From a virus (taxonomy: Duplodnaviria > Heunggongvirae > Uroviricota > Caudoviricetes): a stretch of DNA of 64,000 nucleotides. Positions 46,223 to 61,301 of this stretch are shown one piece after another (position 1 is the stretch's first letter; each line of letters begins with the position of its first letter). The stretch lies in IMG/VR virus record IMGVR_UViG_3300037484_000317; one strand, written 5' to 3'. The notes beneath the pieces were generated by a model that saw nothing but the letters and a program-made list of their open reading frames with translations, had not been told where the DNA came from and ran no database searches. The translations under genes and the position numbers were made by a program.

Positions 46223-46888
46223 GTGAACAACATGGATTCACAAATCTGTTTGCGCACGAGCAATCACTGTCCCTGTCCTGTAGGTGGATTGGTAGATGGA
46301 CTGTGCAAAGCCCATCGGACAAAACCTGTCCTGCACTTGGTGCCACCGCTACCACCTGCGGTACTTCCGGAAGACACTGAAGACGTCGAAGACCTGGACG
46401 GAGTTGTACCCGCACCGCGAAGTCACCCACGAAAAGTTCGGAGTCCGAACCCTGGGGAAATCACGTGCTTCGTTTGTGGCAGCCAAATCTCTGGACGAGT
46501 GGATGGCCCCAAGTTCTATGAGAGTGCTCGACGCAAGGGTGCAAGTACCCGCCGGTGTAAAGATTGTCGTGGTCTACACCACATGCCCGAAGGAAGCGGG
46601 ATTGTGAGTTCCACAACTCGCTATGCGGATGACACAGTAGCTCAACTTGTCGTTGAAATGTACCCTGAGGGCGTTCCCGGTGACATCGTAGGTGAGCTTC
46701 TAGGAATCACTCGTCAGAGGGTATCCCAGATTGAAATACGTGCTCTTAGCAAGCTCCGCGGAAGCAAGAGGGCTGGAGTAGATCTGTGGGAGATGTTCAA
46801 TGAACACCACGTCTTCACCGAACACACGATGAAGAAAAGGCAAGATTCTGGTTTGAGAATCATGCCCTTTCTTCGCCGGAGTGTGTAA
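46223..46888 (+). CDS. Zn-ribbon protein with a sigma-70 region-4-like HTH
   Basis: IVGELLGITRQRVSQIEIRALSKLR; CFVC and CKDC pairs. Confidence 0.65.
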   Translation: MNNMDSQICLRTSNHCPCPVGGLVDGLCKAHRTKPVLHLVPPLPPAVLPEDTEDVEDLDGVVPAPRSHPRKVRSPNPGEITCFVCGSQISGRVDGPKFYESARRKGASTRRCKDCRGLHHMPEGSGIVSSTTRYADDTVAQLVVEMYPEGVPGDIVGELLGITRQRVSQIEIRALSKLRGSKRAGVDLWEMFNEHHVFTEHTMKKRQDSGLRIMPFLRRSV

Positions 46889-49462: not shown

Positions 49463-49960
49463 ATGTCAGACCAAGCACTTCGCAGCCGCCTCATCCGCCT
49501 CGCACACAGAAAGCCCGAGCTGAGGCCAGTGTTGCTTCCCATGCTGGCGAACGGAACCCGCACGGCGGCAGATCATGGTGTGTCGGTTCGGTACCACATT
49601 GAAAATGGACTTCTGGGCATCGTTGAGGTGATTGCCCTTGACCTTAGCAAGGAATTTTCCGAGTCCATCCGATTCAGAGTTCCCTCTATCTCAAGTCGAA
49701 TGCAGGCTTCCGTTGAGGGTGCGATTGAGTGGCTTCCTGACCCCTCTCAAAAGGGATACATCCTGATCAGCTTTAGACTAGACCAGTTTGACCTACACAA
49801 AGCCGAGATCTTCCTCAGTATGGACCTACCCAGTGGGAAGAGCTTTCAAAAGAGCTTCAACGCAGGGTCCGATTGGTTAGCGAGGCCAGCTCGGACAAAT
49901 GGTGTGAATTTCGCGAGGGCCTTGAAGGGTTGGATTGATAGCTTCTTCATGAGTGCCTGA
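49463..49960 (+). CDS. Leader-family protein 1
   Basis: MSDQALRSRLIRLAHRKPELRPVLLPML. Confidence 0.75.
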   Translation: MSDQALRSRLIRLAHRKPELRPVLLPMLANGTRTAADHGVSVRYHIENGLLGIVEVIALDLSKEFSESIRFRVPSISSRMQASVEGAIEWLPDPSQKGYILISFRLDQFDLHKAEIFLSMDLPSGKSFQKSFNAGSDWLARPARTNGVNFARALKGWIDSFFMSA

Positions 49961-49970
49961 TTGGCCCCTA

Positions 49971-50492
49971 ATGTCTAGAAATCTCCGATCTAAACTCATT
50001 CGCCTTGCCAACAGCAAGCCAGAACTTCGGCCAACGCTCCTTCCCTTGCTTAAGGAAGCTGCTTGGGAAGATGGCGATGCCCTGAAGCTGAAACTGATTG
50101 AAACCTTTCCTAACGAGGAAGATGGAACTGAAGGTCGGGTATTCGACCTTGGGCATCAAGGATACAGCGCAATGCTCTTTGACGTTGACTCTGGCAATAC
50201 GGTTGGAGGGCGCATTTACCCACGTGAGATGAAGCAGAAAGCACTCGACTACGCTAAGAAGATAGCACAAGGTGGGGGCGGTAGCATCCTTCGTCTAGCT
50301 GGCGGAAAGTCAGACAAGAGGGATGTGGAAGAAGGGCTCATGGCCTACCACAATTCCGCCCTCAGCAAGTTCGATGTTACGGCTCAGCAGTTTGGACGTA
50401 AGTTCCATGCCATTGCCTCGAAGTTGAGGCTGAACGATGATGCACGTGCGGCCCTCTGGCGCTACATCACTGACATTTCATACGAGGTATAG
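49971..50492 (+). CDS. Leader-family protein 2
   Basis: MSRNLRSKLIRLANSKPELRPTLLPLLKEAA. Confidence 0.75.
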   Translation: MSRNLRSKLIRLANSKPELRPTLLPLLKEAAWEDGDALKLKLIETFPNEEDGTEGRVFDLGHQGYSAMLFDVDSGNTVGGRIYPREMKQKALDYAKKIAQGGGGSILRLAGGKSDKRDVEEGLMAYHNSALSKFDVTAQQFGRKFHAIASKLRLNDDARAALWRYITDISYEV

Positions 50493-50500
50493 GGTCTCCC

Positions 50501-50890
50501 ATGTCTAATCTACGTAGCAGCCTCATCCGCCTCGCACATGCTAATCCCGCACTCCGGGCCGATCTACTCCCACTACTCCGTGAGGCGGGCTGTGAGAAGC
50601 TCCCAGAGGGTGGCATGAGGGACAACTGCGAGAAGAAGGTAGAAGAGGGCAAGGATAAGCCTGAGAAGGAAGCCGCCCCCCCTGCCAAGCTCAAAGGCAA
50701 AAAGCTGGACAAGGCGATCGAGAAGGCATACTACCACCATGGCAGTGGCATCCAGATTGACATGATGAGCATTCCCAAGATCTTCAGGGAAGGCGTGAAG
50801 GCTTACCAGGACGCGGCTACGGTGGAAGAGGCTGAAAAGGCGTTGGATGAGGCAATGAAAGCCGCCGTTGTCAAGTACCGGGTCAGCTGA
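50501..50890 (+). CDS. Leader-family protein 3
   Basis: MSNLRSSLIRLAHANPALRADLLPLLREAG. Confidence 0.75.
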   Translation: MSNLRSSLIRLAHANPALRADLLPLLREAGCEKLPEGGMRDNCEKKVEEGKDKPEKEAAPPAKLKGKKLDKAIEKAYYHHGSGIQIDMMSIPKIFREGVKAYQDAATVEEAEKALDEAMKAAVVKYRVS

Positions 50891-50905
50891 AGGGGGGAGA
50901 TGTAA

Positions 50906-51691
50906 ATGGCAGTAGCATTTCTACCGGGAACAGTACTTGGACAAGGGGATCTTGACATCTTCTTGACGAACGCGGATGGGGATCCGGCGAACGCCTATGA
51001 GATTACCTATGCAATCTACTTCGTATCACCGGGCCCCCCAGAGTCAGAAGTCCTGATTGGGAGTGCAACACGTATCCCTCTCAATCCAAATGTCGGAGAA
51101 TACTATGCCTCCCTGCAAGTACCGACCAACGCCACCGTAGGCACCTACCGCATCCGTTGGAGCTTCAAGCAGTTTGCTTCTAGTGCCGTCCAACAGGTCG
51201 TACAGGAGTGGGCCGTCGTCGGAGCGGGCGTTGTTGCCGTGCCTGTCTACTCTGTCTCACAGGCGTCGATGATCGGTAAGTTGAGGGTGCTTTTGAGAGA
51301 CCAGGCCCCAGATAAATTCTACCATTTCAGACCACCTGAGTCCGAGGGGAATATCGGTGCGTACAGCCAGGTTTTCGGTCAGATCTGGGAAGACGCTGAG
51401 CTGCTTGAGTACCTAGAACGTGGATTGGACTGGTGGAACATGTTTCCACCCACAACTCCCGATCTGGAAACCATCGACAAGCTCGTTACCGAGAAGGCAG
51501 TCTGGCGTACCGCCATCCTCTGGGAGGCAATCTCTCATGCGTGCTTTGCCCTAGCAATGAACTGGACTGCGGATGAATTTTCACTGGTCTCAAGCACTCT
51601 TATCACTGTGGTACTTCCTGATGGACGGGAAGTAGAAATTACCATCGGGGAACTTTACGAGCTACACTGCGAAAATGGCCGGACTCTCTAA
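50906..51691 (+). CDS. N-part of a putative neck/head-tail adaptor protein (Ig-like N-domain) fused to a 36-aa N-intein
   Basis: Ends ...WTADEF/SLVSSTLITVVLPDGREVEITIGELYE... (intein block A, 51581-51688), then TAA. Confidence 0.75.
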   Translation: MAVAFLPGTVLGQGDLDIFLTNADGDPANAYEITYAIYFVSPGPPESEVLIGSATRIPLNPNVGEYYASLQVPTNATVGTYRIRWSFKQFASSAVQQVVQEWAVVGAGVVAVPVYSVSQASMIGKLRVLLRDQAPDKFYHFRPPESEGNIGAYSQVFGQIWEDAELLEYLERGLDWWNMFPPTTPDLETIDKLVTEKAVWRTAILWEAISHACFALAMNWTADEFSLVSSTLITVVLPDGREVEITIGELYELHCENGRTL

Positions 51692-52640
51692 ACTCCAAGT
51701 AACAAAGCGCTATGGGTTCAACTTCAGGTGGATTGAAGAACTCATCGATCGCGGACTTGTGACATGTCTTCCAGGATGTACCCCCCTCCGCCAGAAGATT
51801 TCCCATGAGTCTATTGAGTCACTTGTGGAAAATGCCCATTACGTCAAGTGTATTGGGTGCGGGATGCGTGCCGGGCAGATCACTACGAAGCACGTTAAAT
51901 CCTGTTCTGGCATCTCCCTTTCGGAGTATGCTGCTCGATATCCAGGGGCACTTATTCTGTGCGATCTTGCATCGGAAAACAGAGAGAAGACTGAGGTTCA
52001 GAAACAAGCCCAGTCCAAGAAACTCAAGGCCAGATTTCAGACACCAGCAGGTGAGGTCACACGCTCGCAGATAGGGAAATCGGCTAAGCGGATGCAAGCC
52101 TCTGAATCTGGCGATCGATCCAAAGCGCATCTGGTAAAACTCAACTCAGATCCTGTACGAAAAAAGCAAATCTCTCAAGAGACAAAGTCCAGATGGGACT
52201 CAGGTGAAGCTCGGGAGCACGTCGAAGGTTGGCATCGAGACAACAAAGAACAGTCCAACTCCCTGATTGCAAATGCGCGCTCCTTCAACCGACGCAAGAG
52301 GACAAAGCTCCACCTAGGGTTCAAAGAACTCATGGTATCCTCTGGTATTTTGGGATTCCAAACGGAATACAGAGTTGGGTACTTCTCGATTGACGAGGCC
52401 CTGCCTGGAAAGCGGTTGTCCCTAGAGATAGATGGGTGCTACTGGCACTCGTGTCCTCAATGTGGGCTCAAGGGTCCTTCGGATAATCGGAGGACAGACA
52501 AGTCCAAGGCCACCTATCTGGCCAACAGAGGCTGGTTGGTGCTCCGCCTATGGGAGCATGAGATTAAAAGGGATCCGGATGGGTGTCTGGCTAGGGTCAG
52601 AGCATTTGTTCAAAGTCGGGAGAAACTGTCGTATGCTTGA
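51675..52640 (+). CDS. Free-standing Vsr/DUF559-like homing endonuclease between the split-intein halves
   Basis: EYRVGYFSIDEA...LEIDGCYWHSC...GWLVLRLWEHEI; N-terminal CxxC finger. Confidence 0.82.
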   Translation: MAGLSKLQVTKRYGFNFRWIEELIDRGLVTCLPGCTPLRQKISHESIESLVENAHYVKCIGCGMRAGQITTKHVKSCSGISLSEYAARYPGALILCDLASENREKTEVQKQAQSKKLKARFQTPAGEVTRSQIGKSAKRMQASESGDRSKAHLVKLNSDPVRKKQISQETKSRWDSGEAREHVEGWHRDNKEQSNSLIANARSFNRRKRTKLHLGFKELMVSSGILGFQTEYRVGYFSIDEALPGKRLSLEIDGCYWHSCPQCGLKGPSDNRRTDKSKATYLANRGWLVLRLWEHEIKRDPDGCLARVRAFVQSREKLSYA

Positions 52641-53322
52641 CAATGAGACACGAGAAGATCTTAGGTCTGCCCTAAGATCTGGAACCCTCAAGGCCCGCAC
52701 TGTAGACTCAGTGACAGGTTTGGTCTCTGACCGGCCAATCACCTCTGTCCTCCGTCACCACACCCCCCACAAGCCCTTAGTGCAAGTGACCTTAGTGAAC
52801 GGAGCCTCTGTGACGTGCACTGAGGATCACAGCCTATTTGAGCCTCAGGGAGTGGGGGTTGTCCCTGTGGCTGCCGGAGATCTTTGTGTTGGTTCCCCTA
52901 TCACTACTGTGAGGGGCGATAAAGCGGCATTTGAAGACACTGCGTCAGTGCTCCATCTCCCACCCGAAGAATACACCTACGATTTGTCAGTCCCAGGCCC
53001 ACAGAATTTCATGTTGTCAAATGGAATCCTGGCCCACAACTCATATTCCATCGGCGGAATTAGCTTGGACATTGAGAAGTCTTCCAAGTACGAGAGCCTC
53101 AAGCAGAACGCCGAGTCCCAGTTCGACAAAGCCACTGAGGCCAAGGCCCGAACTGTTAAATTCATCAGGGGATTGCAGCAGCCCAAGTACGGGATTGGCG
53201 TGCGAAGTGCATTTGGTCCAAATGTGGGTAGAGGGGTTTTGAGTCCTAGATCGTTCTTGGTTTTTCCTTTCATTCTAGGGGTTTTCAGTCTGCTATCTCA
53301 GTTCCATAGTGTGCTTTCCTAG
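52633..53322 (+). CDS. 136-aa C-intein fused to the C-part of the putative neck protein
   Basis: Block B TCTEDHSLF; block F YTYDLSVPG; block G ILAHN, followed by SYSIGGISLDIEKSSKYESLK. The ATG overlaps the upstream stop. Confidence 0.85.
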   Translation: MLDNETREDLRSALRSGTLKARTVDSVTGLVSDRPITSVLRHHTPHKPLVQVTLVNGASVTCTEDHSLFEPQGVGVVPVAAGDLCVGSPITTVRGDKAAFEDTASVLHLPPEEYTYDLSVPGPQNFMLSNGILAHNSYSIGGISLDIEKSSKYESLKQNAESQFDKATEAKARTVKFIRGLQQPKYGIGVRSAFGPNVGRGVLSPRSFLVFPFILGVFSLLSQFHSVLS

Positions 53323-53403
53323 CAAGCAGGTGTGTTTCTTCAACTCCCTCCTTCAGGAGCGTGCGGAGGTAGAAGCCTAGTGGGGCTATAGAAGGTCAAG
53401 GTC

Positions 53404-53721
53404 ATGGGACTCTCTGACAAGACTCTTCGATCTGCCTGCATCCGGCTAGCACAAGCCAACCTCGAACTCCGAGCCCACCTTCTCCCTTTGCTCACTGGAG
53501 TCAAGGTCGCTGGGGGGGCATCCCTGTTCAAGGAGTTCATGGCGGAGTTGGAGATCATCCGCCGAATGGGGAAGATTCTCGATACCCACCGTGCCTTTGG
53601 TTCCCGTGATACCGAGCCCGAGGGCGTCGTAATCGACGTACTTGAGAGCTACTTGAAGCTCTATCTGTATCGTGGGGACTTCCCAAAGACCTACGACTCT
53701 CTGGACCGTGGGTACCTGTGA
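53404..53721 (+). CDS. Leader-family protein 4
   Basis: MGLSDKTLRSACIRLAQANLELRAHLLPLL. Confidence 0.72.
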   Translation: MGLSDKTLRSACIRLAQANLELRAHLLPLLTGVKVAGGASLFKEFMAELEIIRRMGKILDTHRAFGSRDTEPEGVVIDVLESYLKLYLYRGDFPKTYDSLDRGYL

Positions 53722-53724
53722 GTC

Positions 53725-55032
53725 ATGGGACTCTGGGATGACGCACTTGGGGATGTTCGGCAGTTCAACAAACTGCACGCACAGGTCGAACGTTCTGCGG
53801 ATACAGTGACATTGCGCAAGTCCCTACGGGGCATGAGCAAGCTAGTCCAGTTCCAAATCTGGGTGAAGAAGTGTTGCACCCCAGACACGTACGCGTCGTA
53901 CTTGGACTCTGCGCGCGAGATGACTCGTCTGGTCAAGGAACCCACTGCGGGGGATGAGGCGCTCCGCGCTTCTATCGAACGTGTTATGCAGGAGGTGCGG
54001 AAGGCACTTGCCAGTACGGCGCACGAGACGTTCAACTACTCAGGCTTCCACATTTGGAATCCGGAGCGTTTTGCGGAAGTGCTGTGCATGAAGACCCTCA
54101 GGGGCCTGGACTACCTCAGGGGGCTCCTTCGGAAGCGTGGGGTAGAGAACCTGATCGAAGGGGCAGTGTCCCAAGTCAATCTCGTCCTGGACGCAGGGGC
54201 CACCGCATTCTTCCACTCCACGACAAGGGAGCTGACCCTCTCTGTTCCAGAGCTGTCTGGGGAAAAGCCCAGCAGGATTGTGGACAGCTTTGCAGGGGAG
54301 ACTGTCCTGCACGAGTTCGGTCACTACGTGCATCGTGTCTTTCTCAAGGGAGAGGCGGCAGAGGCGTGGAATGCCCCTTGGGAAGGGATAGCGGATGCTG
54401 CCGAATGGAAGAGGCCGACAGAGGGCGCACGTGACCCACGGCTTGAGGCCCTAGAGATCCCTACTGACTACGGGCGCACTGACAAGTACGAGGACTTCGC
54501 AGAGACCTTCATGCTGTTCGTAGCCTCCCCCGAGAAGCTCTCCCCCACAGCCAAGTTCAGGATGCAGCGAGCCCTGTCCCTCTCAGGACTCTACGGCAAG
54601 CCTGTGATGCGCCTTGCTGAACTCAATGACCGTGTAGTCCGGCGGTACACATCCGCGTCACGGGCGAAGATGCCAGTCGGGTCAAAGACACCCTATCTGT
54701 TCAATCTAGACCCGCACGCACTTGTTTTCACTGAGACAGGACAGGATAACGTGTCCACGTACGAGGGAGATCGGTCAAAGCCGATCCTCGTGTATGAGGA
54801 CAAGGAAGGCAACCTGTTTGTTTTGGATGGGCATCACCGAACGTTGATCGCTCGCAAAGAAAACAGGCGAGTACGTGGCGTCGTGATGCCAGAACATGTG
54901 TACCGGAAGTTCGTGCGCGAAGGTGTCCATCAATCAGAGATGTTTCGCGAGTTCGCACGATACTCATCAGAGCATCGGGACATGGTGGGGTCCGTGGTCC
55001 GACGGTACGCGGGCGTCAAACCCCAAGCATAA
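53725..55032 (+). CDS. Zincin (HExxH...E, anthrax-LF-like) peptidase fused to a ParB/Srx-like domain
   Basis: VLHEFGH and YEDFAETF; C-terminal LFVLDGHHR. Confidence 0.65.
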   Translation: MGLWDDALGDVRQFNKLHAQVERSADTVTLRKSLRGMSKLVQFQIWVKKCCTPDTYASYLDSAREMTRLVKEPTAGDEALRASIERVMQEVRKALASTAHETFNYSGFHIWNPERFAEVLCMKTLRGLDYLRGLLRKRGVENLIEGAVSQVNLVLDAGATAFFHSTTRELTLSVPELSGEKPSRIVDSFAGETVLHEFGHYVHRVFLKGEAAEAWNAPWEGIADAAEWKRPTEGARDPRLEALEIPTDYGRTDKYEDFAETFMLFVASPEKLSPTAKFRMQRALSLSGLYGKPVMRLAELNDRVVRRYTSASRAKMPVGSKTPYLFNLDPHALVFTETGQDNVSTYEGDRSKPILVYEDKEGNLFVLDGHHRTLIARKENRRVRGVVMPEHVYRKFVREGVHQSEMFREFARYSSEHRDMVGSVVRRYAGVKPQA

Positions 55033-55411
55033 CGTACTCGCCGCGCCAGCCGAGATCTTCGTCCCACCGGGCTTCGCCCCGTGCTTCCATCTTCTTGAAG
55101 AGGCCCTCCAGCTGATCGGAGACAATGCCACTTGAAGAAAGTGGGAGGTGGAACACCCGCATGCACTTCTGGTGAGCGGCGAGAATCAGGGCTCGTCCAA
55201 TCTCTTGACGTTGGTACTCCGGCAGGACCCAGATTTCTCCGATAGGACACGAGGGCCCTGACTGCCCCCAGGTGAGCTGCCCCACTCGCTTGCGTCCGGA
55301 GAACGCTGCAACCGTGTACATGCCTCCTACGGGCGCTACGGTGCGTACGACGACACGCTTTTGAGAGTCAGCGTAGCGGGCGGCGACTCGTATGGGACTA
55401 GCGTGAGTCAT
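55016..55411 (-). CDS. GNAT acetyltransferase-like protein with an IRVAARY N-terminal motif
   Basis: IWVLPEYQRQEIGRALI resembles GNAT motif A. Confidence 0.6.
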   Translation of the reverse strand: MTHASPIRVAARYADSQKRVVVRTVAPVGGMYTVAAFSGRKRVGQLTWGQSGPSCPIGEIWVLPEYQRQEIGRALILAAHQKCMRVFHLPLSSSGIVSDQLEGLFKKMEARGEARWDEDLGWRGEYVMLGV

Positions 55412-55428
55412 TCGCGCCAGTGTGAGTC

Positions 55429-56208
55429 TCAGTCTACGAGAGTCCTGCTGGGACCGCCCGTGCTATCGAGCACGTTGCCCTCAAGCTCGGCCAGGAGATC
55501 AACGGCCTTGTCCAGTACCCTGCTTACGGCCATGTTCCGAAGTCCGTACTTGGCGAAAGCTGTGCACGAATCAAGGAGCTGGAGGAACGTAATCTGCACG
55601 TCCTCCTGTGCCTGCACGGCCATCACAAGCTCAAGAGCATCCTTCTTGATGTAGTTGACCTGCATCGCGCCCACGCCGGCCGTCTTGAGGTCTGCTGTCT
55701 TGAGGATCTTCGTCAGGGCCGTGTCGATCTTCTTCAAGTGCTTGACCGCATCCGCGTCGTTCCCGTAGGCCGAAGCGTGGTCAATCTGCATCTTGATTTC
55801 CTTTTGGGCCTTCTCGGCGACGTCACGAGGCACTTCCTTGCCGGAAGTGAAGAACGATCCGGCGGAGTTGATGCCCGGTGTCTTTGGTCCCTGCCACTGC
55901 TGTAGGTCACCACCAAGGGCCTCGGTGCCCTTGACGTGAGTGGACTTTGCACCCTCGCTCTTGGCGCCTTCCGGCTTGCCTTCCGGCTTGCCTTCTGGCT
56001 TCTCTTCCTTGCCACCCGCAGGCTTCCCGCTCTTGGGCTTAACTGAGTGACTCTTAGGGTCTGCGTTCGGGTGCTCATGCAGGTAATCACGCATAGCTTC
56101 TGGCGTATTGAACACCATCGCCTGCTTGAGCAGCGGAAGAAGGTGCGGCCGTAGCTCCGGCTGGGCATGGGCAAGGCGGATGAGCTTGGAGCGAAGTACC
56201 TGTGACAT
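55429..56208 (-). CDS. Leader-family protein 5
   Basis: MSQVLRSKLIRLAHAQPELRPHLLPLLKQA. Confidence 0.78.
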   Translation of the reverse strand: MSQVLRSKLIRLAHAQPELRPHLLPLLKQAMVFNTPEAMRDYLHEHPNADPKSHSVKPKSGKPAGGKEEKPEGKPEGKPEGAKSEGAKSTHVKGTEALGGDLQQWQGPKTPGINSAGSFFTSGKEVPRDVAEKAQKEIKMQIDHASAYGNDADAVKHLKKIDTALTKILKTADLKTAGVGAMQVNYIKKDALELVMAVQAQEDVQITFLQLLDSCTAFAKYGLRNMAVSRVLDKAVDLLAELEGNVLDSTGGPSRTLVD

Positions 56209-56250
56209 ATCTTTCGTTGCGTATAGGGAGGTTAAGGCGTAACAGCCATC

Positions 56251-57267
56251 GTGACTGTCCCGATTACCAAGCTGATATCTCCAGAGGATTTAGTATCCGA
56301 TTACAGGATGGCTCTGAGTGTTTTCCAGGAACTCGTTGAAGATTTGCGCACCCCAAAGAGGGGGCAAACTGCACTTTTCAGCCGCCACGGACTCAATCCG
56401 ACCATAGTCAGTGGAAGAAAGTTGGTGGAATGGGTGCTTCAGACGCGAGCAATTCCCTCGGGGGAAGAGAGATTCCTGGAGACCGTGGCCAGAATCTTCG
56501 GGACAATCAAGTCTGCCCCTCGAAATCCGATTGTCTGGTACGACAAGAACCGCCCGTGGCTGCTGTATCTCCTGAAGGCTGCGGAATGGGGGAAGCGAGA
56601 GGCAGTACAAGAAGTAGCTACCGTTGGATCCTTCCGGGTCCACAACACAATCGGGGCTGACGAAAAGCAATTTGCTACGATTCAGGCCTTGTTCGCGGAC
56701 GCGGAGGTGGCCTTGTTTTCGACTCTTGATTTTCGGAAGACACTCTATGGAGATGTCTTTGTAGTCGGGCAGATTAGGCAGATGAGCACCCTCGCCTGGT
56801 ACTCAATGAAGGAAGATGACGTGTACATCCGATCACTTTCCCAGAGGGGAGTGGATGACCTGCTGAACTTGATTCATGAATTGGGGCACAGACATTGGTA
56901 CCGGTTCACAAATCCTAGTCAACGCCGAGCGATTTCCCGTCTCTACGTCAAGCTTCGTAGTGCATCCTCAGTGTCTGTGAAACTCCCGAAGGTTGGGGAC
57001 CCCATGCCGGTTCCAATCAGTGGGTTGAGGACGGTGCCCACCATCATTGGATATGATGGGACCAGGTACCACCTTTCCTCCGGTGGATCTGTGCCAGCTC
57101 GATCCGTGAGCAATATTCTCCACACCCAACAAATACGCGAGAAGTTTCCTACCGCCTATTCCATGACGAACATCTACGAGTTCTTTGCCGAGTGCTTTGC
57201 TCTTTTCACCCTCAAGAGACTCTCTCCTGAGCTGGCTGCGGAGTTCGAGGCGGCACTCACTGAGTAG
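56251..57267 (+). CDS. Zincin (HExxH...E) peptidase-like protein
   Basis: LIHELGHRHW and IYEFFAECF. Confidence 0.6.
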   Translation: MTVPITKLISPEDLVSDYRMALSVFQELVEDLRTPKRGQTALFSRHGLNPTIVSGRKLVEWVLQTRAIPSGEERFLETVARIFGTIKSAPRNPIVWYDKNRPWLLYLLKAAEWGKREAVQEVATVGSFRVHNTIGADEKQFATIQALFADAEVALFSTLDFRKTLYGDVFVVGQIRQMSTLAWYSMKEDDVYIRSLSQRGVDDLLNLIHELGHRHWYRFTNPSQRRAISRLYVKLRSASSVSVKLPKVGDPMPVPISGLRTVPTIIGYDGTRYHLSSGGSVPARSVSNILHTQQIREKFPTAYSMTNIYEFFAECFALFTLKRLSPELAAEFEAALTE

Positions 57268-57303
57268 CACCTCTGCGCATCTAGTCTATAGCCCACACTC
57301 CAC

Positions 57304-57870
57304 GTGGGTATCCAGTGTTTTATGATCGTGGAGACGGCACGTACACAACTCTCATTGCGCCGATACAGCAATGAGGGGGTATGCCCTCTCACCCATAGCT
57401 ACCACAATGAGAGCAAGCCGCTTGGAGTAGTATCTACCATCTACGGTGTGTCTGGCGGACGGCGTGTGATTGAACCTCGTCCAGAACAGATTGCCCACGA
57501 TGACCCTCGGTGGCCCGTGCAGTGCGCTTGTGGGGAGCCATTCACCGAAAAGGATACCTGGCAGATCTTCCAAGACGGCATTTGGAGCCGACCAGACACC
57601 GGCGAGGAACTGACCCTACGCCAGTGGCAGAAGGTCCCTGGGGCCATGTGGGACGCGTGGTGGTATCACACTACGTGGGTGGGTCCGGATGGCCTCTCCC
57701 TCGTAGTAGCCCTGCCAGACGGGCGCGAGTGGCTAATGGATGGCCCTGCGAAGGGGAGCAATCGACCTTGGACTCGGACTGGAGTCCCACCCATAGTGAC
57801 GGCTACCCCGTCAATCCTTACGCCTGGATATCACGGGTGGTTGAGGGACGGTGTATTGGTCCCCTGTTGA
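57304..57870 (+). CDS. DUF6527-like protein
   Basis: WTRTGVPPIVTATPSIL...YHGWLRDG pattern. Confidence 0.45.
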   Translation: MGIQCFMIVETARTQLSLRRYSNEGVCPLTHSYHNESKPLGVVSTIYGVSGGRRVIEPRPEQIAHDDPRWPVQCACGEPFTEKDTWQIFQDGIWSRPDTGEELTLRQWQKVPGAMWDAWWYHTTWVGPDGLSLVVALPDGREWLMDGPAKGSNRPWTRTGVPPIVTATPSILTPGYHGWLRDGVLVPC

Positions 57871-57893
57871 CTAGCCTATCTTTCAGAGCTGGT

Positions 57894-58184
57894 ATGACCT
57901 CGAAGCTTCGTTCGGCTACGATTCGATTAGCCTACGCCAATCCCGAGATTCGTTCGCACCTGTTGCCGCTTTTGAAGGTAGCAAGTCATCTACAGGTTGG
58001 GGATACAGTCACAGTTCTTGCGGGAACTCGTGTAGGTATGGGGAAGCTGAAGGCTGCTGTGAAAGCGGTCATAGATGCAAAGCAGGTGAGCGATCAGGGT
58101 GGTACTTTCTACGGTGTTGGGTGGACGGATCCACGAACCGGAAAGCAACGCCATACCTGGGTCGCATCATCTCAGCTTGCCTAA
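57894..58184 (+). CDS. Leader-family protein 6
   Basis: MTSKLRSATIRLAYANPEIRSHLLPLLKVA. Confidence 0.75.
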   Translation: MTSKLRSATIRLAYANPEIRSHLLPLLKVASHLQVGDTVTVLAGTRVGMGKLKAAVKAVIDAKQVSDQGGTFYGVGWTDPRTGKQRHTWVASSQLA

Positions 58185-58222
58185 ACTCATTCTCTCTGGT
58201 CTCTGTCACAAAGGACAATCCC

Positions 58223-58339
58223 ATGCCTGATCTCAAGACTCCTGTCGGTTTCCTTGCCTGGACCATTGGTTTACTCGCGTTTTCCCTTGTAGCCAGAATC
58301 GGCTGGGAAATCGGGGGCAAGCTCTGGGGTCTCTTCTGA
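58223..58339 (+). CDS. Small single-TM protein (38 aa)
   Basis: AAGGA RBS; hydrophobic GFLAWTIGLLAFSLVA. Confidence 0.5.
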   Translation: MPDLKTPVGFLAWTIGLLAFSLVARIGWEIGGKLWGLF

Positions 58340-58363
58340 TTTGCCTATCGGTGTGAGATGTGT

Positions 58364-59143
58364 ATGACTGACGCGAAGCTTCGTTCATCCCTGATTCGAC
58401 TGGCTCACAGCAAGCCGGAGCTTCGTGCTCAATTGCTTCCAATCCTGAAGACAGCGGCTCTTCCAAAGGCCCCCAAGCTACCTAGTGGGGCTCGACAACT
58501 TGGGGTGGATGCACAGGCTCTTTTAGACGGTGAGGGTGACCTCAATACCGCGAAGAGCCAAGCGAACGAAGTCGCGAAGAAGTATCATCACTCAAAGAGC
58601 CCTAAGGATGAACGGGTAGCTCTTGCCGTCTACTTCCTGGACTTGGGAAAAGAGCTGTCGAAGCACAGTGGGGATCCGGCTGCGCTTGGGAAAGTGCTAC
58701 TCTCCATGGGTAAGGACTTGAACGATCTCACAGAGCACTTCGATGAGCAGGGTTGGACACCAAAGTCAGCTGGCAAGACTGCGGGTCGGTTCTTCAACCG
58801 CAAGAATCCCAACACCGGACCCGTCTCGGAGGCCGTAGAGGCACTCAATGCCTTGGCCGCTAGCGCGAATCTCCCTGTTCGATGGGAAGACGTCAACGAA
58901 CATGAGAAGCCCGTGCCTATCCCAAGGGGATTTGAATCCCTCTGGGATTCTCTCATGATCACAGTTTCCTGGGACAGGTATTCACAGTACGCAGATGTGA
59001 GTTGGTCTTACACTCACCCAGGCGGTGGCTCCAATGGCGTCCCCATCGGTAACATCATTTGGATGGGAGAAGCTGGTAGATGGGGTTGGCGAAATGCAGC
59101 CAGTAAGAAGCACGGCTACGTCGCTCCCGCAGATATCCGATGA
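58364..59143 (+). CDS. Leader-family protein 7
   Basis: MTDAKLRSSLIRLAHSKPELRAQLLPILKTAA. Confidence 0.78.
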   Translation: MTDAKLRSSLIRLAHSKPELRAQLLPILKTAALPKAPKLPSGARQLGVDAQALLDGEGDLNTAKSQANEVAKKYHHSKSPKDERVALAVYFLDLGKELSKHSGDPAALGKVLLSMGKDLNDLTEHFDEQGWTPKSAGKTAGRFFNRKNPNTGPVSEAVEALNALAASANLPVRWEDVNEHEKPVPIPRGFESLWDSLMITVSWDRYSQYADVSWSYTHPGGGSNGVPIGNIIWMGEAGRWGWRNAASKKHGYVAPADIR

Positions 59144-60155: not shown

Positions 60156-60467
60156 CTAGAATTCGTCCTTCGAGAATTTCACGATGACTCGTGTGCCAGA
60201 ACACAGGGTGATAATGTCTCCGCTACGTAGGTTCTGTTGCTGGATCTTTTTGCCCATGAGAATTGTACCCCACCCGGAGCCCAGGTCAATGAGTACCGCA
60301 TCGTTCTGATTCTTCACTACAATGAGGGCGTGTCTGGATGCCACCCGTGCGTCGTCAAAGAGCAAGTCGCTCTGCGGGGCAGTGCCGATTCGGATCTCGG
60401 TGTCCGTAACGATGTCCACGATTCGCTCGGGGCACCCGTACTCCTGAATCCTGAACTGGAATATCAT
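60156..60467 (-). CDS. FHA-domain protein
   Basis: IRIGT..QSDL.FDD..VASRHALI...LIDLGS..GT.......LRSGDII. Confidence 0.75.
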   Translation of the reverse strand: MIFQFRIQEYGCPERIVDIVTDTEIRIGTAPQSDLLFDDARVASRHALIVVKNQNDAVLIDLGSGWGTILMGKKIQQQNLRSGDIITLCSGTRVIVKFSKDEF

Positions 60468-60637
60468 GGCGCTTCCTCAGGAGTTGGGACGACTGTGACG
60501 AGCTGTGTCCCATCGGGCAACGTTTGCTCGATGCATACAGCAATGCACTCACTACAATGCTGGATCATCAAACGGCCTCTATCACCGTGCAGGTACAGGT
60601 CACCGTTACTCCAGCGATGCTCTTTGCAAAACACGGG

Positions 60638-60928
60638 TCACTCTTCTTTCGGGGCAGCCTTGAACTTCTGGGCGTTGGGGATCTTGGGGATGGGCATACC
60701 GGGACGCCAATCGGGCTGGACTTCTCGGATGCGGCAGATCCAACAAACCTTTCCCTCACCTCGTACATTCATCGACGAGATGCTCCCGGGCCACCACCAG
60801 TTAACAGAGAGCCACATGGCCCGAACCTTCTTGCACCGAGCGCAACGCGACCTACTTGATCGCCGATTTGGTAGATTGATGTGTTCTCGCGCCATGTGTT
60901 CGTCCCTCACCGCAGTAACGAGCGGCAT
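60638..60928 (-). CDS. Hypothetical Cys-containing protein
   Basis: TAAGGTGAGG RBS 5' of the ATG; CARC and CWIC pairs. Confidence 0.5.
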   Translation of the reverse strand: MPLVTAVRDEHMAREHINLPNRRSSRSRCARCKKVRAMWLSVNWWWPGSISSMNVRGEGKVCWICRIREVQPDWRPGMPIPKIPNAQKFKAAPKEE

Positions 60929-61052
60929 GCCTCACCTTACACGTTTGACCTCAGGTAGAAAATCTTGCACCGATTCCTGGACGTGGTGGGATCCTGTGCT
61001 AAGAGTTCGCCCTTCCCCACTTCAGTGGGCTCTGAAAGGCGTAAGGTACTGC

Positions 61053-61301
61053 ATGACCAATTCTCTCAAGGTTCTTCTTTCAATCTGTCTCTTGGTGGTA
61101 GCTTCTGGCTGTGGCGACGACGCTCCTCCTCCGGCAACGGATGCGGGCGACGTGGACATGGGCACCGTGGACGTGGACATGGGCACCGTGGACGTGGACA
61201 TGGGCACCGTGGACGTGGACATGGGCACCGTGGACGTGGACATGGGCACCGTGGACATGGGCACCGTGGACATGGGCGACGTAGACGGCGCCGCCGGCTG
61301 A
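61053..61301 (+). CDS. Small lipoprotein with acidic tandem repeats
   Basis: Signal peptide with lipobox VASG/C, then GDD...(DVDMGTV)x5. Confidence 0.75.
   Translation: MTNSLKVLLSICLLVVASGCGDDAPPPATDAGDVDMGTVDVDMGTVDVDMGTVDVDMGTVDVDMGTVDMGTVDMGDVDGAAG
61149..61277 (+). repeat. Coding tandem repeat: five perfect 21-nt units plus two truncated units
   Basis: GACGTGGACATGGGCACCGTG x5, then GACATGGGCACCGTG and GACATGGGC. Confidence 0.95.

Follow-up and report, generated by a model that had tools for sequence, protein, structure and literature searches.

A short module on unrelated proteins marks an uncultivated lineage of huge phages

Exploring a 64,000-nucleotide stretch of DNA from a Caudoviricetes virus (IMG/VR record IMGVR_UViG_3300037484_000317; this whole stretch is referred to as the window), we found that seven genes encode proteins that share one module of about 25 residues at their N-termini and are otherwise unrelated. 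We refer to the module as the tag and to the part of the protein that follows it as the cargo. The tag is a real, undescribed and lineage-wide module, and it resembles known targeting and polyprotein themes. We tentatively favor the view that the tag serves virion-delivered proteins of the polyvalent type as their address and delimiter, i.e. that it would dock on a conserved phage-encoded prohead component and that the [KR]-x-A motif at its flank would be the cut site used during maturation.

Copies of the tag were sought in the window with a six-frame regular expression and with a profile hidden Markov model (HMM) run over all stop-to-stop frames. Both searches returned seven copies and no more, the same seven proteins to which the initial annotation had assigned one leader, with HMM E-values of 3.5e-18 to 3.5e-15 and the next match in the window at E>1. 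The seven tags span <=9 kb of the 64 kb; their alignment has 12 invariant columns and the consensus LRSxLIRLAHxxPELRxxLLPLL. The copies are 72% identical in amino acids vs 61% in nucleotides, and 73% of the identical residues are encoded by different codons, with serine specified by both AGC and TCN, which bears out the earlier statement that conservation is at the protein level. The cargo parts are mutually dissimilar, as had also been noted (best pairwise BLASTP E=0.07). Together, the data show a genuine module that is conserved as protein and is borne by unrelated cargos. The clustering of all seven copies within 9 kb would suit a repeated DNA element such as a recombination or regulatory site, or chance similarity, and is the only observation that would; such an origin is excluded by the codon differences, by the use of both serine codon families, by HMM E-values of 1e-15 to 1e-18 with no intermediate matches and by thousands of protein-level homologues.

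The seven window proteins gave no Pfam match at E<=1 and no PHROG match at E<=0.01 over the tag, and their cargo parts matched no Pfam or PHROG family. An Atlas feature search with the tag yielded no usable match, and a literature search did not find the motif in any paper, in agreement with the earlier view of the leader as undescribed. The same holds for the claim that it is not a Sec, Tat or lipoprotein signal: Arg, Glu and His interrupt the tag throughout (by inspection), and internal and C-terminal copies exist.

Beyond the window, a 35-position profile searched against 1.84 billion representatives recovered 3,385 protein clusters with a threshold of E<=1e-3 and 450 when this was tightened to E<=1e-10, and a word-indexed search recovered at least 1,565 tagged proteins. 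A degenerate DNA pattern for the tag, holding about 49 bits of information by our own estimate, matched 99 stretches in IMG/VR on contigs of up to 485 kb; in 596 Gb of prokaryote genomes the same pattern matched 4 stretches, all on contigs of metagenome-assembled genomes. The tag contigs are viral (IMG/VR) and carry tail, virion-protein and connector-like genes; their sample types include marine Tara and freshwater lake. CheckV estimated the larger tag contigs as 30-59% complete and the 485-kb contig (LR745208) as 92% complete, from which we put the genome size of the lineage at about 450-500 kb. Tags number 10-15 per 140-265-kb fragment and 11 in LR745208. A tblastn search with a four-tag protein gave no match in 50,697 GenBank phage records; this search is insensitive, having missed LR745208 with its 11 tags as well. 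Together, the data indicate that the tag is specific to phages and to one uncultivated huge-phage lineage. Within one contig the tags are 73.1% identical vs 71.7% between contigs; that they are hardly more alike within a contig points to one conserved partner across the lineage.

The consensus of this wider set is LRSxLIRLAHxNPELRxxLLPLL, again about 25 residues with a leucine core. An AlphaFold2 model built from 126 aligned tags comprises a helix at 3-15, a break at N-P and a second helix at 17-34, with a mean predicted local distance difference test (pLDDT) score of 81.5, i.e. the tag is predicted to fold as an antiparallel helical hairpin. In the model the leucines and the isoleucine make up a small core. 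Arginines at core positions 2, 7 and 16 do not vary among the window copies, and their conservation in the wider set is 92-100%. In a fold search, the model could be superposed (1.6-2.0 A) on antiparallel two-helix hairpins of a generic kind only, at E>2 and with no detectable homology. A hydrophobic mini-fold carried by unrelated cargos must bind something common. Prediction of a complex of two tag copies gave a score of 0.02 in a run made without controls, which weighs neither for nor against such pairing.

The description of the tag as an N-terminal leader holds for all seven window proteins and for most of the tags, but in relatives tags are also internal and C-terminal, often in several copies. 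In IMG/VR open reading frames (ORFs) we counted 111 N-terminal tags, 44 internal ones and 12 that form the extreme C-terminus, and among the top database matches, a set of 212 proteins biased toward multi-copy ones, the respective numbers are 178, 208 and 72; 12-18% of tags form the extreme C-terminus. Two tags are present in 165 of these 212 top-scoring proteins, three to five in 37, and one at each end in 51. The polyproteins of relatives carry 2-5 tags each, with domains separated by linkers rich in K, E and D, and there are also proteins of 63-130 amino acids (aa) made up of two tags and a linker only. In these architectures the behavior of the tag is that of a module, or delimiter, which is not tied to one position in polyproteins of the polyvalent type.

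Protein 3 of the window provides a direct comparison, as its whole length can be aligned with residues 550-650 of P0013, a protein of 650 aa (53% identity). There the protein-3-like unit follows an internal tag, behind a RelA/SpoT-like region, and in the window the unit is composed of tag, GCEKLPEGGMRDNCEKK mini-module and 65-aa domain, indicating that tag plus cargo is a unit that exists as its own gene or fused in a polyprotein. Fusion or fission happens at the tag in this one clear fused-versus-split case. Short mini-modules recur after tags. The pattern C-x2-3-LPxGxMRxxC follows tags in 32 of 355 tagged proteins (window 50579-50640) and (Y/F/W)-x3-(H/N)P-x-A(D/E/N/K)-x2-4-H lies 11-40 residues after tags in 37 of the 355 (window 56040-56125, minus strand); a third, (F/Y)EEG...M(S/T)xE(D/E), is found in 14 of them.

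Examination of the tag flanks revealed a strong enrichment of [KR]-x-A, in line with the earlier observation that K/R-x-A follows the leader. The motif lies <=7 residues after LLP(L/M/I)L in 7/7 window tags and at +1 to +3 in 5/7; in the wider set it occupies +1 to +3 in 54% of N-terminal and 42% of internal tags. In addition, [KR]-x-A-x stands directly before 37-38% of internal and C-terminal copies, commonly as G-K-x-A-S. The background in tagged proteins is 1.6% per position, equal to the expectation from composition, or 10.6% per 9-mer, and the enrichment directly beside the tag is about 30-fold. The commonest residues after LLPLL are K (46%), K or E (26% and 24%), A (43%) and A (38%), Glu thereby being a minority residue at +2. 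Similar sites had been reported between internal domains; ILKTADLKTAG in protein 5 and KSAGKTAG in protein 7 are indeed present, but away from the tag the motif occurs at no more than its composition frequency. N-terminal tags carry no upstream [KR]-x-A, which indicates that the fold does not need the upstream motif; this absence is the best argument that the motif may have a function in the internal context, such as cleavage. Herpesvirus assemblin, which is structurally related to the prohead protease of T4, cleaves at x-A↓S, and the cut motif of the protease of phages phiKZ and SPN3US is (S/A/G)-x-E. The enrichment of [KR]-x-A fits a cleavage site, short of proof.

A census with PHROG and Pfam left most cargos unexplained. 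The ParB-like phrog_2859, carried by P0012, P0048 and P0005, was found in 15/99 tagged proteins and phrog_37844 in 7/99, and the other recognisable cargo domains are RelA_SpoT (carried by P0037), WGR, DUF2958, DUF7007, C39 peptidase, Zeta toxin and pentapeptide repeats. A >11-kb gene of the cultured Pseudomonas phage Epa33, annotated 'structural protein 5', contains the ParB-like module as well. According to Iyer et al. 2017 (PMC5512222), zincin metallopeptidase (MPTase), DdrB-ParB and RelA/SpoT serve as hubs in the domain architectures of phage polyvalent proteins; packaging, injection and zincin-mediated processing into units are predicted for these proteins. As in the polyvalent proteins described there, disparate enzymatic domains are joined in the tagged relatives; disparate domains including hubs were found in relatives and in the window gene at 53725-55032. 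In contrast to the polyvalent proteins, unit boundaries are marked here by a conserved hairpin, and a term search of that paper found no mention of linkers and no description of a repeated inter-domain module (PMC5512222). A further difference is that the units of the window are separate genes, each keeping its own tag, so that the seven tagged proteins are single-cargo.

The features of the island, which extends over ~10 kb and includes the seven tag genes, a connector-like gene, two zincin genes, a GNAT gene and other ORFs, several of which have no assigned function, are listed in Table 1.

Table 1. Tagged genes and neighboring features of the island (window coordinates)
Feature	Coordinates	Strand	Remarks
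Conserved Gly/Val/Thr-rich protein, 199 aa	48279..48878	+	island edge; no family match
Tagged protein 1, 165 aa	49463..49960	+	tag core 49478-49546, then ANGTRTAA; HMM E 2e-15
Tagged protein 2, 173 aa	49971..50492	+	tag core 49983-50051, then KEAA
Tagged protein 3, 129 aa	50501..50890	+	tag core 50510-50578, mini-module REAGCEKLPEGGMRDNCEKK, charged linker, 65-aa C-terminal domain
Connector-like core virion-type gene	50906..53322	+	N-part 50906-51691, C-part about 52633-53322
Free-standing DUF559/MTES_1575 endonuclease gene	51675-52640		third frame, between N- and C-parts of the connector-like gene; Pfam DUF559
Tagged protein 4, 105 aa	53404..53721	+	tag core 53425-53493, then TGVKVAGG
Untagged zincin (HEFGH) with ParB-like C-terminal domain (VLDGHHRT)	53725..55032	+	PHROG ParB-like match, residues 346-385
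Tagged protein 5, 259 aa	55429..56208	-	tag core 56128-56196, then KQAM; E 3.5e-18
Untagged zincin (HELGH)	56251..57267	+	divergent from tagged gene 5, 42-bp gap
Tagged protein 6, 96 aa	57894..58184	+	tag core 57906-57974, then KVAS; database entry P0115
Tagged protein 7, 259 aa	58364..59143	+	tag core 58379-58447, then KTAA
GNAT acetyltransferase gene	within the island	-	Pfam

Several of the tagged proteins have counterparts elsewhere. Protein 2 is database entry P0113, from a contig of 160,816 bp, and the Atlas model of its cargo shows a weak likeness to the LPD16/LPD18 polyvalent-protein cluster (TM 0.46), which is a lead only. In protein 5 the tag is followed by mini-module YLHEHPNADPKSH, a K/E/P-rich linker and a helical body. 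The C-terminal cargo of protein 7 has tagged homologues of 144-146 aa on two IMG/VR contigs (38-41% identity). Homologues of the 199-aa protein at the island edge occur in five tag-centred IMG/VR loci at 46-60% identity, directly behind a tagged gene in two of them; this protein holds the tag-like stretch LRLAH. Megablast of the island against GenBank phages gave no match. Elsewhere in the window there are genes for DNA methylases, nucleases, NADAR and NAMPT and for a sigma-factor fragment, and tandem MGTVDVD repeats, preceded by a lipoprotein-like LVVASGC segment, form the end of the ORF at 60237-61301 (by eye; window 61100-61300).

Over 98% of its length, the connector-like protein is 26% identical (E 2e-6) to a protein of Tunturiibacter phage Tunturi_5 that is annotated as its head-tail connector. 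A fold search of the protein against the PDB gave generic immunoglobulin (Ig)-like matches to its N-domain only, which are not diagnostic, so that its 'neck' identity is putative, drawn from this one annotated homologue and from context. The gene is broken by a split intein: its N-part is short, ending at 51691, and its C-part has a Pfam Intein_splicing match and ends HN↓S. The 1,446 homologues are uninterrupted at the insertion point, where they read ADEF↓DYSIGG, and among the 120 of them that were listed none carries a tag. Among relatives, G001 and G003 have their copy split at this position, and L025 and LR745208 at a second one near residue 133. Homing-endonuclease genes (HNH and others) lie directly downstream of the connector-like gene in several relatives, namely L072 (5021-7800), L002 (17504-18937) and L013 (1431-2501), which suggests a homing hotspot.

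The initial annotation had the leader genes surrounding a putative neck gene. Tagged genes do directly flank the connector-like gene in the window and in at least 6 other contigs, with cargos that are mostly non-orthologous, the loci of those contigs having been selected for containing tags. As a general rule, clustering of tags at the connector gene was rejected, given distances of about 4-13 kb in three larger contigs; the tags form islands, but the data do not support their being linked to the neck gene in general. Runs of tagged genes occur in other metagenomic contigs as well (L107 1816-4931, with four consecutive genes, and L108 828-7212), and these include a 321-aa four-tag protein and a 68-aa two-tag protein. 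The idea that multi-tag proteins are scaffolding proteins encoded beside the capsid gene found no support, as these two loci are tag islands with no recognisable capsid gene.

When a conserved neighboring enzyme was sought near tags, the zincins were the only candidates. The two untagged zincins of the island are related, having the motif P-x-Y...YE-FAE-F in common. The product of 53725-55032, a zincin joined to a ParB-like domain, is a two-domain polyvalent-type protein; 119/120 of its homologues have HExxH, and one source names the family SprT-like. A tag is present in 1/120 of these homologues and the ParB-like motif in 2/120. The TGA of tagged gene 4 (window 53719-53727) is in frame with this gene, one codon (GTC) before its ATG; read-through could give a tagged polyvalent protein, and ordinary close spacing would account for the arrangement equally well. 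Orthologues of the second zincin, at 56251-57267, are 37-51% identical to it and have a tagged gene beside or near them in 6/7 contigs, mostly directly adjacent, the cargos of these neighbors being mutually dissimilar and non-orthologous; these loci, too, were selected for containing tags. In LR745208 the orthologue lies about 60 kb from the nearest tag.

Upstream of the tagged genes, a promoter-like motif, (C)GNTRR-N4-YCTATM, was found <=80 nt from the tag in 24/61 occurrences, about 55-fold above expectation, and the same motif lies 15-55 nt upstream of 44/116 tagged genes in relatives (IMG/VR loci L004-L102). In the window, the strict pattern is not enriched (3 matches vs 1 expected). CCTAT(A/C)-like boxes stand 25-40 nt upstream of tagged genes 1 and 4-7 and likewise of the sigma-factor-like gene at 46223.

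How might these elements work together? A lineage of ~450-500-kb phages attaches the predicted hairpin to many unrelated proteins, and we infer that, during prohead building, the hairpin would dock each cargo on one conserved phage-encoded partner, most likely a scaffold, core or inner-capsid component. A maturation protease would then cut the flanking [KR]-x-A(S/A) motifs, whereby polyproteins would be resolved into single domains and the tag would be lost. The window has a separate gene for each of the seven cargos, and relatives have the same units strung in one polypeptide.

Comparable arrangements are known from other phages. In T4, a capsid-targeting sequence (CTS) loads diverse internal proteins into the scaffolding core (PMC3012670); it is carried by the internal proteins IPI-III and Alt and is removed by the gp21 prohead protease (PMC3012670, PMC9026906). 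As in T4, one short peptide is common to unrelated proteins of one phage, a candidate cut site directly follows it, and the cargos are plausibly anti-host proteins. Unlike the tag, with its about 25 residues, its internal, C-terminal and repeated copies and its [KR]-x-A flanks, the T4 CTS has about 10 residues, is strictly N-terminal and ends in (L/I)-x-E. The two have no sequence similarity; within the window, L-(K/R)-E is read in proteins 2 and 3 only. In P22, the scaffolding protein binds coat protein via a helix-turn-helix (10.1101/2022.12.13.520362), and this coat-binding domain has been reused to load foreign cargo into P22 capsids (PMC9962691). The likeness lies in the small basic hairpin, which in P22 suffices, as a fusion module, to bring a fused protein into the procapsid; the modeled tag (pLDDT 81.5) would likewise be a hairpin with conserved basic residues (Arg 2, 7 and 16). 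The P22 domain has no detectable sequence relation to the tag and, in contrast to it, is a single C-terminal copy in one protein. In the giant phages phiKZ and SPN3US, N-terminal propeptides of head and ejection proteins are cut by the gp175/gp245 protease (PMC5694885, PMC10052503). In these phages many ejection proteins are loaded and trimmed by a prohead protease at short motifs, but their propeptides are not one common sequence, whereas our phages have one conserved tag with a [KR]-x-A flank. By analogy, the tag may work like the T4 CTS or the P22 helix-turn-helix, while belonging to neither family.

A number of observations weigh against the proposed address and delimiter role. A pure cargo-address model does not predict genes that encode only two tags joined by a short linker (63-73 aa). 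The genomes have their tag genes in scattered positions rather than restricted to structural modules, and in the three larger contigs mentioned above the nearest tag is about 4, 13 and 5-6 kb away from the connector-like gene. The downstream K-x-A falls inside helix 2 of the AlphaFold model and may be structural rather than a cut site. Besides tag genes, the promoter-like motif precedes those of an RNA ligase and an HNH homing endonuclease and several ORFs of 1,000-2,300 aa; tag genes therefore need not be late, and late-only expression is unsupported. Phage_capsid (PF05065) was not found in five relatives, and Peptidase_S77 (PF03420) had no match in five related contigs, nor in any control genome, which makes the latter search uninformative; neither a scaffold nor a major capsid protein nor a prohead protease was recognised in the lineage. 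Finally, the lineage has no cultured member.

Some of these points would be accommodated if the tag acted inside the cell as a 'sticker' that binds a phage-encoded hub or other tags, so that multi-tag scaffolds and single-tag enzyme clients meet in one complex, body or compartment and nothing is packaged. Many proteins consist of only 2-5 tags and charged, probably disordered linkers, down to the tag-only genes of 63-73 aa; the scatter of tag genes over the genome, the promoter-like motif common to tag genes and non-structural genes such as that of RNA ligase, and the uniformity of the tag across the lineage all agree with this possibility. However, the recognisable cargo (ParB-like, RelA/SpoT, and zincins as neighbors) represents domains described for virion-delivered polyvalent proteins (PMC5512222), the ParB-like module forms part of a very large protein that is annotated as structural in a cultured phage, and the hub protein is so far only hypothetical. 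We therefore consider a purely intracellular sticker rather unlikely. More doubtful still is a broader proposal, a scaffold-client system encoded by the virus with the hairpin as its sticker, in which tag-repeat proteins would form a multivalent matrix, inner-body-like in the capsid or as a compartment of the cell, and single-tag enzymes would partition into it.

It is also conceivable that the tag has no addressing role and is a processing delimiter only, the hairpin being the recognition element for an untagged zincin that cuts [KR]-x-A. The motif is found on both sides of internal tags, the island contains two untagged zincins that are lineage-wide, orthologues of the 56251-57267 zincin lie near different, non-orthologous tagged genes in 6/7 contigs, and zincin-mediated processing of polyvalent proteins is predicted by Iyer et al. 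(PMC5512222). Yet most tags are N-terminal on single-cargo proteins and 12-18% are at the extreme C-terminus, where there is nothing to separate, a 25-residue fold on single-domain proteins exceeds the needs of a cut site, and in LR745208 the zincin is about 60 kb away from the nearest tag. For these reasons we judge delimitation without addressing to be improbable.

Least probable among the functional explanations, and in our opinion quite unlikely, is a host-targeting domain, in which the hairpin would bind some conserved protein or structure of the host and tether effector domains to it, with tag-only proteins acting as minimal binders or inhibitors. Tag-only and multi-tag proteins are plausible as avidity binders, and phages of differing base composition (judged by eye, from upstream sequences) have a uniform consensus. 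However, the tag belongs to one phage lineage, whose marine Tara and freshwater lake samples imply diverse hosts, and a phage-encoded partner is the simpler account of its uniformity; moreover, Pfam and Atlas feature searches showed no similarity of the tag to known host-binding motifs.

At least 3,385 protein clusters of a phage lineage whose genomes are among the largest thus bear one easily recognised 25-residue module. If the hairpin were instead part of a scaffold-client system, it would represent a sequence-encoded sorting code that organises dozens of unrelated proteins of a ~500-kb phage. If the tag is an address, as we tentatively propose, sequence alone would list the proteins that these uncultivated phages load or gather, most of them without known fold, and the tag would offer a small fusion handle, usable at any position in a protein, for cargo that is to be loaded into large capsids. 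With tags at the unit boundaries, the long-predicted processing of polyvalent polyproteins into separate effectors would become testable at defined [KR]-x-A sites.

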